Shown here: positions 1-3,000 of the stretch, piece by piece
How positions within the stretch are numbered: the first letter of the stretch is position 1
Layout of the letters: every line of letters starts with the position of its first letter
From: an uncultured Candidatus Saccharibacteria bacterium
Lineage (GTDB): Bacteria; Patescibacteriota; Minisyncoccia; UBA6257; 2-01-FULL-56-20
NCBI GenBank assembly: GCA_964467765.1
Contig: CAYXSS010000003.1
Span: 1,451-63,985 of the forward strand
Direction: 5' to 3'
DNA: 62,535 nt
Made by a program: the position numbers

Positions 1-3000
1 GAATCGCGCCTTTTTCTTTACAAATTCGGCAAGGCCGTATATAAATAAGAGCGTAAATACATGGCTGATTTTAAACAGGCGGTTGCCAAATTTAAAGACG
101 CCAACGTGCTTGTTGTCGGGGATTTGATGCTCGACCGCTATACTTTCGGCGACGTTAACCGCATTTCTCCCGAGGCGCCAATTCCGGTGTTGCGCAAAAA
201 TTCGGAAAAATTAGTTTTGGGCGGCGCGGCAAACGTTGCCGCCAATCTTGCATCTCTGGGCGCCAAAGCAACGATCGCCGGAGTTTTGGGTAAAGACGAA
301 AATGCCGAGCGCATCCTTTCGCTTTTGGATGATAAAAAAATTTCCAAATCCGGTGTGCTGGCGGTTGACGGCAGACCGACGACGGAAAAGCAGCGGATTG
401 TCTCCGGCGACAATCATCAGCTTTTGCGTTTGGACAACGAAGCAACCGACCACCTTGATTCCGGAACCGAAGAAAGATTTTACGGCTTGGTTGCGCCGCT
501 TGTCAGAAGTTGCGACGCGCTGATATTTTCCGATTATGCAAAAGGATTGCTTTCAGGAAATTTAACCCAAAAACTCATCGGTTTTGCCAAAAGCCAAGGG
601 AAATTTGTCTTGGCGGATTTCAAGCCGCAAAACAAAGAGTATTTCAAGGGAGTGGATTTGATCTCGCCCAACCTTAAAGAAGGACAGGAAATATCCGGAC
701 TCAAAGAGCCGGAAGAGATCGGCCCGAAACTCGTTAAAGATTTTGGCGCGCACGTGGTTCTTACCAGGGGTGGCGATGGTTTGAGCGTGTTTCGCAGCGG
801 AGATGGTTCCCATTACCACATACCCGGAAAGAAAATCAAAATTTTCGATGTTTCCGGCGCGGGGGACACATCCATTGCCACGCTTGCGCTTGGTTTGGTT
901 TCTGGTCTTGAGCTTGAGCCGGCGGCGGTTCTTGCCAACGAAGCAGGGGCTATAGTAGTGCAGAAGCCGGGAACTGCGGCATTAAGCGTAGAAGAGCTGC
1001 TTTCTTCTTTGCGCGCCGACGGCCATATTGAAAACATCGGCATTGTTCCGAAGGTTTGGGGGTATGAAAAATGGCTGGAGAACAACGAAAAATATTGCTG
1101 CAAGTTACTCTCATTAAACAAGGGCTACCAGTGCAGTTTGCACTATCACAAAAATAAAGACGAAACTTTTTTGATAACCCAGGGGCACGTGCGGCTGGAG
1201 CTGGGGGACGAAGTGATGCATCTCTACCCGGGAGCTTTCGTGCGCATTCCGCCTAACACGCCGCACAGATTTACCGGGATGGATGATTCTCTTATTATGG
1301 AGGTTAGTACTTACCACGACGAAGCGGACAGTTATCGTCTTGAGGAGAGCAGAAGGATTGAGCTGGCGTAGATTTTTTCGCTGCCTTCTGGTTTACGTTA
1401 GGATTTTATCGCAACTTCTTTCGGAACCGCAGTTCGGCCTTGCGGCAGACGCTGCTTCAAAATTAAAACTATTTATGTGTAGGCGTGGACGATTTTTTGT
1501 CCGGATTACGTTATCATTAGTGCATGGATTTGAAGCCATACCTAAAATTTATTTTCAAAATCAAGATCATCGCTCCGCTACGGTCGCTTTTTTTGTTTAT
1601 TGCCGGCGCGCAGGTAAACCGTAGCGACTGGGAAAATCGCCTGTTGATTATTAATTTCGAAGCGCTTGGCGATCTTATAGTTTTTACCTCCGTTCTTAAG
1701 CATTATAAAAAGAGATTCCCGGATAAAAAAATTTATCTTCTTGTAAAAAGCGGCTTGGGCATCGAAGAAGTTATTAAGGGCCAATTTGCCGACGAAGTTA
1801 TCTTGCTTCGCTACAGGAATTTTACCGCAAATCCTTTCTACGGCCTGCGATTTATAAATTTTTTACGGCATATTGGCTTCCGGAAGATTATCAATCATGA
1901 TTTCAGCGCCGCCGAGCCGGTGGGTAAAATTATTGCAGTAAATTTAGGCGCGGAAGAAATTGTCGGCTACGAGGGGACAGGGCTGGAGTATAGAATGCCG
2001 TTCGACATTCAGCAAAAAAAGACGATTTTTTATCTTGCAAACAAGATTATTCCGCGCTACACGAAGCTTATCCGGCGCATTGACCTTGGCATGCCGGAAG
2101 ACAATGTTCTTCCTTCGGCCATCAGCCACTACGTGGCAATTTATGAGGGCGCAACCGGCTTCAGAGAGCCTGATTATTCGACTGCGCTTGAAACTGAAAC
2201 TCGGGCAGGTCTTTTCGACGGCAAACTGACGAAAAAAATCGGCGTTGAACCCGGCAAATATGTCGTGGTTAACTTCGGAGCAAGCGTTTCCTGCAAGCGC
2301 TGGCCGGCGCGGCGTTTTGCCGAAACGCTTAATTTCTTCAAGCATCGCATTCCGGCGGTTGTTCTTATCGGTTCAAAAAAAGAAAGCGCAGACGCTAAGG
2401 AATTTATCAGTATTTATGAGGGGAAAGTGATAGATCTTACGGGCAAGACTAAATTTTTGGAATTTTTGCAAATTATCAAAGACGCTTTTTTCGTTTTCAC
2501 CAATGACAGCGCTACCGTACATGCCGCCGTGGCCATGAAAGTGCCGTCGCTTTGCGTCTCCGGCGGGGGGCAGTTCGGCATGTTTCAGGACTATGGCTTC
2601 ACGAACATAAACAGGTGGATTTATAAAAATACTTGGTGCTACGGAGACAACTGGCGTTGCGGCAGAGGAGAGGGTAAAAAGCTTTCTCCATGCCTTGAAG
2701 CGGTTACCGTGGAAGATGCGAAAAAGGAATTGGAGGCGCTTCTCGCGCAAATCGGCGCACCGAAAGAGGCGGGCGGTTTTCGCATCGGCCGCGCCCCAGC
2801 TCTCCCACCGAAAAATCCTAAAATGAAAATAGTTTACGCTGGCGTGGAATCGGAAAATTATAATCCGCTAAGAAGGCCGAGTTTTGAGTACGGCAATTTT
2901 TACCTCTCTTTGAAATCGATCCCTGGCGTAAGCGTTATCGAGTATCCCTACGAGCAAATTGTCACCCTAGGAAAGAAAAAATTTAATGAGGACTTGCTTG

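Follow-up and report, generated by a model that had tools for sequence, protein, structure and literature searches.

What does a cupin contribute when it is joined to a heptose kinase? The question is raised by a gene near the start of the stretch of DNA analysed here (the window; 62,535 nucleotides of contig CAYXSS010000003.1 from an uncultured Candidatus Saccharibacteria bacterium), which encodes a protein, P0001, in which an HldA-type heptose-7-phosphate kinase is followed by a cupin domain. ADP-heptose and related nucleoside diphosphate heptoses are building blocks of lipopolysaccharide cores and of S-layer and capsule glycans, and they are innate-immune agonists sensed by ALPK1. Here, we propose that the cupin isomerises sedoheptulose 7-phosphate to D-glycero-D-manno-heptose 7-phosphate and that P0001 would thereby be bifunctional, carrying out the first and second steps on the way to nucleotide-heptoses, a reading to which we assign a probability of roughly 0.8. 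The proposal rests on comparative evidence: which domains are present, which residues are conserved, how the genes are arranged and in which lineages they occur. From this we infer the substrate, the metal and whatever channelling there may be between the domains. Under this reading the cupin family has most probably taken over the function of the SIS-fold isomerase GmhA without being homologous to it. Beyond this genome, we judge it likely that the family represents a second, evolutionarily independent sedoheptulose-7-phosphate isomerase, which replaces GmhA in many bacteria of the candidate phyla radiation (CPR), in DPANN archaea and probably in Planctomycetota, and which is variously fused to each other enzyme of the pathway, so that heptose producers lacking gmhA are missed by annotation.

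The genome that carries the window (G000) measures 786 kb and is 97% complete. The two-domain architecture of P0001 recurs in more than 120 protein clusters of 50-67% identity and about 435 amino acids (aa), from metagenomes and metagenome-assembled genomes labelled Paceibacterota, Liptonbacteria, Daviesbacteria and Parcubacteria, mostly Patescibacteria; because so many clusters contain both domains, the fusion is not an assembly artefact. With its size and completeness, G000 is in keeping with this group. In Pfam, PfkB matches at aa 15-307 (E 6e-42) and Cupin_2 (PF07883) at aa 351-408 (E 3e-11; 43.5 bits, cut-off 27.2). MannoseP_isomer (PF01050) is a marginal match at aa 331-428 (26.1 bits against a cut-off of 23.6, profile positions 14-115 of 116), and Lyx_isomer (PF07385) a weak one, with 25.8 bits for the whole protein (cut-off 20.8), no single stretch that passes, and profile positions 153-204 of 222 only. 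TIGR01479 (GMP_PMI) reaches 25 bits against a cut-off of 373, and the Pfam and NCBIfam scans gave no SIS match in P0001. An AlphaFold (AF2) model built from a 27-sequence alignment (predicted local distance difference test score, pLDDT, 89.6; predicted template modelling score, pTM, 0.74) shows two compact domains joined by a linker of lower confidence at about aa 310-350.

Judged by its sequence, the kinase half is of the HldA/HldE domain I type. TIGR02198 scores 318 bits (cut-off 345), with ribokinase as the next NCBIfam family at 75 bits, and among solved proteins HldA from Burkholderia (4E84) comes closest, at E 5e-51 over aa 14-313. Both the GG motif (G54-G55) and the GAGD motif that carries the anion hole and catalytic Asp (G266-D269) are invariant in 27 homologues. 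Fused homologues score 297-334 bits with TIGR02198, and archaeal kinases that adjoin the cupin 357-399 bits. The bifunctional HldE model NF008454 is matched at positions 2-317 of 475 only; since domain II is absent from the polypeptide, P0001 is not a canonical HldE.

Conservation of the cupin half equals or exceeds that of the kinase half. In the alignment of 27 full-length fused homologues (A1) the residues H361, H363, E368, G375, P398 and H402 are invariant, and a second alignment of the cupin from fused and standalone members (A2) retains 20 invariant positions, among them H361, H363, K366, E368, H402, K331, K348, R403 and R426. Standalone members are 105-150 aa long, with up to 73% identity, and a family profile search over 1.84 billion representative proteins recovered 204 clusters at E 1e-30 or better. 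Searched against the PDB, the A2 profile finds the D-lyxose isomerases 2Y0O (E 5.6e-10, positions 19-101, nearly the whole domain) and 7NZO (E 1.6e-7; 29% identity in the structural alignment). In the Thermofilum D-lyxose isomerase (TsLI) the metal ligands are H75, H77, E88 and H143, with E88 proposed as the base and K86 stabilising the cis-enediol (PMC8378251). H361, H363, K366, E368 and H402 of P0001 align with H75, H77, K86, E88 and H143 of TsLI; because all of these aligned residues are invariant, the catalytic set of a metal-dependent aldose-ketose isomerase that yields manno/lyxo products is intact. Modelled by itself (pLDDT 95), the domain forms a simple cupin beta-barrel, and its top fold match is the 110-aa Thermococcus phosphomannose isomerase (PMI) 7ZVY (Foldseek E 1.9e-8, TM 0.80/0.84; VIA Z 15.9, root-mean-square deviation 1.8 over 106 residues). 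Quercetinase YxaG, first in the single-sequence PDB search, is uninformative, as only the core motif is matched, and twice in this bicupin.

These results bear out most of the first-pass annotation of the locus, which had described an HldE-type kinase followed by a complete cupin with the motifs HxH-x4-E-x6-G and G-x5-P...H: Pfam, NCBIfam and the homologues agree on both domains, the three domain models it had named (PfkB, Cupin_2 and MannoseP_isomer) all match, the motifs are present with their core residues invariant in the full-length homologues, and the metal ligands hold up in A1 and A2 alike. Its concern that the kinase might instead group with ribokinases is answered by the scores above (318 against 75 bits). 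Its description of a cupin in place of the adenylyltransferase domain is right about the cupin; the arrangement is better worded as a lineage in which HldA and HldC are separate genes.

Which step the cupin serves is indicated most directly by gene order. Across species-representative genomes, a standalone cupin comes first in the order cupin-SDR-HldA-GmhB-HldC (SDR, short-chain dehydrogenase/reductase) at 21 loci, 20 of them labelled DPANN (Woesearchaeota, Nanoarchaeota and others) and one Nomurabacteria. No GmhA is present in any of the 21 operons, whose kinases lie above the TIGR02198 cut-off. All classical activities for ADP-heptose are present except the isomerase. Four of the loci are without a labelled GmhB or HldC. 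A glycosyltransferase of family GT9 usually lies a few kb upstream.

A similar picture emerges from a sample of 400 Patescibacteria genomes and, separately, from 46 species genomes found via the cupin. Sampled Patescibacteria with a standalone HldA have the order GmhA-HldA-GmhB-HldC. In family f40 only G074 (99% complete) departs from this: its order is cupin-HldA-GmhB-HldC, and GmhA was not found anywhere in its genome, whereas the congeners G159 and G239 keep the usual order. HldA is 67% and GmhB 73% identical between G074 and either congener, and the upstream neighbour 71% between G074 and G159; the first gene alone is swapped, cupin and GmhA being without similarity. Among the 46 cupin-bearing species genomes, an HldA-type kinase that scores 297 bits or more is present in 43, and a GmhA-like gene of at least 50 bits in about 10, none above 124 bits; in the sampled Planctomycetota (3-6 Mb) there is no GmhA-like gene. 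Conversely, GmhA (140-208 bits) lies directly upstream of HldA in 25 of 26 Patescibacteria that have HldA and lack such a cupin. These counts are not independent, since the genomes are related; the complementarity recurs in archaea and in no fewer than three families of bacteria. SIS genes that occur alongside the cupin are part of other gene sets: those of this window and of two further fusion loci (L021 and L023) have a GHMP kinase and/or an NTP-transferase next to them or at most a few kb away, and in three DPANN genomes (G415:C71, G416:C3 and G440:C52) the SIS gene is next to a second PfkB kinase (115-125 bits with TIGR02198), away from the cupin operon. This pair of second PfkB and SIS genes may represent a distinct sugar-phosphate pathway with a GmhA-like isomerase.

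Fusions link the cupin to the same pathway. Cupin and HldA are joined in both orders, and further proteins combine HldA-HldC-cupin (587 aa), GT9-cupin-HldA (809 aa), HldC-cupin, cupin-HAD (GmhB-like), cupin-NTP-transferase and cupin-SDR. GmhB, HldC or GT9 adjoins the kinase-cupin fusion in loci L019-L029 and L069, and on metagenome contig L004 the order is HldC, GT9, cupin-GmhB-HldA. Downstream of the kinase-cupin gene in L069 (genome G236, like G074 a GmhA-less one), HldC and GmhB are themselves fused (L069:7452-8630, minus strand; CTP_transf_like plus HAD, 392 aa), and two polypeptides would therefore carry four steps. GmhB-labelled open reading frames (ORFs) of 328-361 aa were also seen in L025, L027, L029, L034, L039, L042 and L057, of which L034, L042 and L057 are labelled DPANN and L039 Nomurabacteria. 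Two standalone-looking cupins on long contigs from ENA (P0121 and P0122, in L003 and L006) directly follow broken PfkB fragments in regions with many split genes; they are probably frameshifted assemblies of the fused gene and not true split forms.

Several observations weigh against the role proposed for the cupin. The genome studied here has a GmhA-like SIS gene in a separate HddA-type operon, so heptose 7-phosphate could also arise in this organism without the cupin. We had considered the cupin as the sole isomerase of the genome and reject that idea on account of this gene; the cupin may instead make the beta-route operon self-sufficient. Cupin and GmhA-like gene coexist in four of the ten fused-form genomes. 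In the Patescibacteria genus g67, three genomes of about 0.4-0.6 Mb (G141, G160 and G336; 83-96% complete) encode a 129-aa cupin of 46-48% identity, and no HldA-type or HddA-type kinase was found in them; some members may therefore act on another substrate or do something else, or the pathway differs there. Planctomycetota cupins have no pathway neighbours within 8 kb, and their association with the pathway is at genome level only. ORFs of 419-519 aa around the planctomycetal cupin were considered as fusions and discarded; they are probably over-extended calls, because no Pfam domain is found outside the cupin. The kinase of P0001 lies slightly below the equivalog-domain cut-off of TIGR02198. 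Finally, the fold match does not discriminate: dozens of unrelated cupins tie with the phosphomannose isomerase at Z 14-16, and the fold search therefore speaks to fold and not to function.

Could the cupin act in the heptose pathway at another step, such as C2/C3 epimerisation to a non-manno heptose, anomerisation, or a ring-opening that feeds the kinase, with the isomerase of GmhA-less genomes encoded elsewhere? Cupins act as sugar and nucleotide-sugar epimerases, the RmlC type being established as such, and pathway association fixes the pathway, not the step; the cupin also coexists with a GmhA-like gene here and in four other fused-form genomes. However, the five-gene DPANN operons have every classical activity but the isomerase assigned, most of those genomes lack GmhA, and the exact positional swap with gmhA in G074 would be hard to explain. 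Moreover, the His/His/Lys/Glu/His set is that of metal-dependent aldose-ketose isomerases and not of the metal-free RmlC-type epimerases; as the family keeps both the metal site and the isomerase Lys/Glu pair, we have set a RmlC-type epimerase aside, and we regard a role at another step in general as unlikely.

An ordinary phosphomannose or D-lyxose/D-mannose isomerase, acting on C6 or C5 sugars and linked to the kinase through some other, for example mannose-based, product, seems more improbable still. The MannoseP_isomer match barely above its cut-off, the weak Lyx_isomer match, the cupin phosphomannose isomerase at the top of the fold search and the g67 genomes with a cupin and no heptose kinase would all agree with it. 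Against this stand the partner kinase, which is specifically of the HldA type (318 bits, and up to 399 in archaeal neighbours), the GmhB, HldC and GT9 heptosyltransferase-like proteins that recur as neighbours and fusion partners, and a complementarity with GmhA, not with PMI. In other proteins, for instance AraC-type regulators and CENP-C, cupins act as sensors or mediate dimerisation, and both of these are among the weak Pfam and Foldseek matches of this cupin, yet a regulatory role towards the kinase, as a ligand-sensing or oligomerisation domain with no catalysis of its own, is very hard to reconcile with metal ligands and a catalytic Lys/Glu pair that are invariant in fused and standalone forms, with standalone genes that fill an enzyme slot in operons, and with many fusion partners in both orders, which fit an independent enzyme and not a one-partner regulator.

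How would sedoheptulose-7-phosphate isomerisation by the cupin proceed, and how would it feed the remaining steps in this organism? The C-terminal cupin is predicted to bind a divalent metal via H361, H363, E368 and H402 and would convert sedoheptulose 7-phosphate to D-glycero-D-manno-heptose 7-phosphate, a C7 counterpart of the conversion of fructose 6-phosphate to mannose 6-phosphate by PMI, probably through a cis-enediol intermediate with E368 as the base and K366 in a stabilising role. The N-terminal kinase would then phosphorylate O1 to give the 1,7-bisphosphate. Removal of the 7-phosphate would fall to the GmhB domain on contig 15, which is joined to an NTP-transferase, synthesis of the nucleotide sugar to the HldC encoded about 1 kb upstream, and transfer of the heptose to the adjoining GT9 enzyme. 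The first-pass annotation had expected a fusion of a kinase with a sugar isomerase or epimerase to serve a step other than that of HldE; comparative genomics supports this expectation and sharpens the step.

Table 1. Features of the window and of related loci. Plain coordinates refer to the window; those with an L prefix refer to other extracted loci.
Feature	Coordinates	Strand	Evidence and remarks
436-aa ORF (P0001), HldA-type heptose-7-phosphate kinase + cupin fusion	61-1371	+	Single uninterrupted ORF; Pfam, NCBIfam
Kinase domain, aa 1-318, PfkB fold, HldA/HldE domain I type by sequence	61-1014	+	Pfam PfkB, TIGR02198, PDB 4E84
Cupin domain, aa 322-436, proposed sedoheptulose-7-phosphate isomerase; family with standalone and fused forms	1024-1368	+	Alignment A2, domain model, profile search
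Codons of predicted metal/catalytic residues	1141-1266	+	H361 1141-1143, H363 1147-1149, K366 1156-1158, E368 1162-1164, H402 1264-1266; codons verified
781-aa glycosyltransferase directly downstream of the fusion	1524-3869	+	GT9 PF01075 E 1.6e-16 (aa 197-345); C-terminal Glyco_trans_1_2 PF13524 E 4.7e-24
350-aa SDR epimerase/dehydratase	4829-5881	+	Pfam Epimerase E 1.3e-43; NCBIfam all below cut-off, including heptose_epim 95.5 bits
Three-gene set: HddA-like GHMP kinase, GmhA-like SIS protein, NTP-transferase	12659-15063	+	NF049969 HddA 157 bits; HddC/MurU-like matches; Pfam
GmhA-like SIS gene	13685-14287	+	TIGR00441 88 bits, cut-off 209; sole SIS_2 match of the genome
160-aa cytidylyltransferase-fold protein	22979-23461	+	rfaE_dom_II 64 bits, cut-off 181.5
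HldC-type adenylyltransferase, 161 aa	L007:26-511	-	G000 contig 3, about 1 kb upstream of the fusion, outside the window; TIGR02199 173.6 bits, cut-off 181.5
232-aa ORF between this HldC and the fusion	L007:596-1294	+	Nudix-box-like motif G-x5-E-x7-REFFEESG, by eye
399-aa NTP-transferase + GmhB-type HAD-IIIA phosphatase fusion	L072:790-1989	+	G000 contig 15; NF006506 158 bits, cut-off 178
g67 cupin	L070:6165-6554	-	Neighbours UvrC and a sigma-70-like protein; no pathway neighbours
g67 cupin	L071:5432-5821	+	Neighbours UvrC and a sigma-70-like protein; no pathway neighbours

The genes around the fusion are listed in Table 1. The HldC gene is divergent to the fusion, and the same layout, with HldC on the minus and the fusion on the plus strand, is found in L020, L021 and L022. 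The first-pass annotation had pointed to a single domain II-like gene 21 kb from the fusion; this is indeed the only cytidylyltransferase-fold gene in the window, but it is probably not the HldC of the pathway, and we set it aside in that role (64 bits against 173.6) in favour of the better match immediately outside the window. The 232-aa ORF that separates the latter from the fusion could encode a candidate nucleotide-sugar pyrophosphatase; it has no NCBIfam match at E 0.001. The 781-aa glycosyltransferase, with weak matches to heptosyltransferase I/II/III models, is the probable consumer of the activated heptose: a GT9 protein also follows the fusion in L019, L022 and L024, with homologous long GT9 proteins in L022 and L024. 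The SDR protein is a candidate for modification of the nucleotide-heptose. The three-gene set that contains the SIS gene looks like a second, alpha-anomer route of the GDP-D-glycero-alpha-D-manno-heptose type. On contig 15, the 399-aa fusion, which holds the only GmhB-like domain found in the genome, precedes a 290-aa SDR epimerase, and about 11 kb from the fusion there is a second PfkB kinase (319-aa ORF, 33% identical to P0001).

Full-text searches found no description of a cupin-type sedoheptulose-7-phosphate isomerase, the work of Tang et al. (Science, 2024) being known to us through commentaries only, and no kinase-cupin example is described in the literature searched, in line with the initial impression that none had been characterised. 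The commentaries report a tridomain isomerase/kinase/nucleotidyltransferase class but give no fold for its isomerase domain (PMC11461863, PMC11573728). The cupins in a paper on CPR metabolism are cupin-type phosphoglucose isomerases (PF06560) and differ from the present family. The pathway and the reaction are known; what is new is an unrecognised enzyme family and the logic of its fusions. Surveys of heptose producers depend on homology to the four classical enzymes (PMC11461863, PMC11573728). If our proposal is true, genomes without gmhA, including most cupin-bearing DPANN, many CPR bacteria and the sampled Planctomycetota, would be wrongly scored as heptose-negative. The family would also offer a clean case of non-homologous enzyme displacement and a new substrate class for minimal cupin isomerases, and small (about 110 aa), metal-dependent, single-domain isomerases would be usable for enzymatic synthesis of heptose phosphates. 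The kinase-cupin fusion would in addition be a natural system for substrate hand-over between the first and second steps.

How does this family compare with known systems? With GmhA (LpcA; TIGR00441, PF13580) it shares the proposed reaction, the operon slot directly upstream of HldA and a complementary distribution. GmhA has a SIS alpha/beta fold, in contrast to the cupin beta-barrel with its His/His/Glu/His metal site and, here, its fusion to a kinase; there is no sequence or fold relationship, and the cupin would be an analogue of GmhA and not a member of its family. The closest specific sequence relatives are the D-lyxose/D-mannose isomerases (PF07385; Bacillus subtilis YdaE, 2Y0O, and TsLI, 7NZO), which share the metal ligands and the catalytic Glu/Lys pair with the cupin and carry out aldose-ketose isomerisation giving the manno/lyxo configuration. 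These are larger (170-230 aa, against about 110 aa), with extra N-terminal helices and insertions, and act on unphosphorylated substrates, whereas the cupin family has the additional invariant residues K331, K348, R403 and R426, which could bind phosphate.

In size and fold, the cupin equals the minimal cupin PMIs of Thermococcus (7ZVY, 7ZVM) and the C-terminal cupin of type II PMI/GMP proteins (phosphomannose isomerase/GDP-mannose pyrophosphorylase; PF01050). Their reaction on a ketose phosphate is analogous to the one proposed here, the PMIs and the D-lyxose/D-mannose isomerases alike making manno/lyxo aldoses from ketoses, and in type II PMIs, too, the cupin is joined to a second enzyme from its own nucleotide-sugar pathway; they differ in that identity is only 18-24%, the Pfam match is marginal and the context of the present cupin is heptose, not mannose. 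Finally, HldE (RfaE) and monofunctional HldA (4E84) share with P0001 the PfkB subfamily of the N-terminal domain and the pathway context. HldE continues into a domain II of the cytidylyltransferase fold where P0001 has the cupin, its HldC counterpart being a separate upstream gene. HldE couples the second and fourth steps of the pathway, whereas P0001 would couple the first and second.

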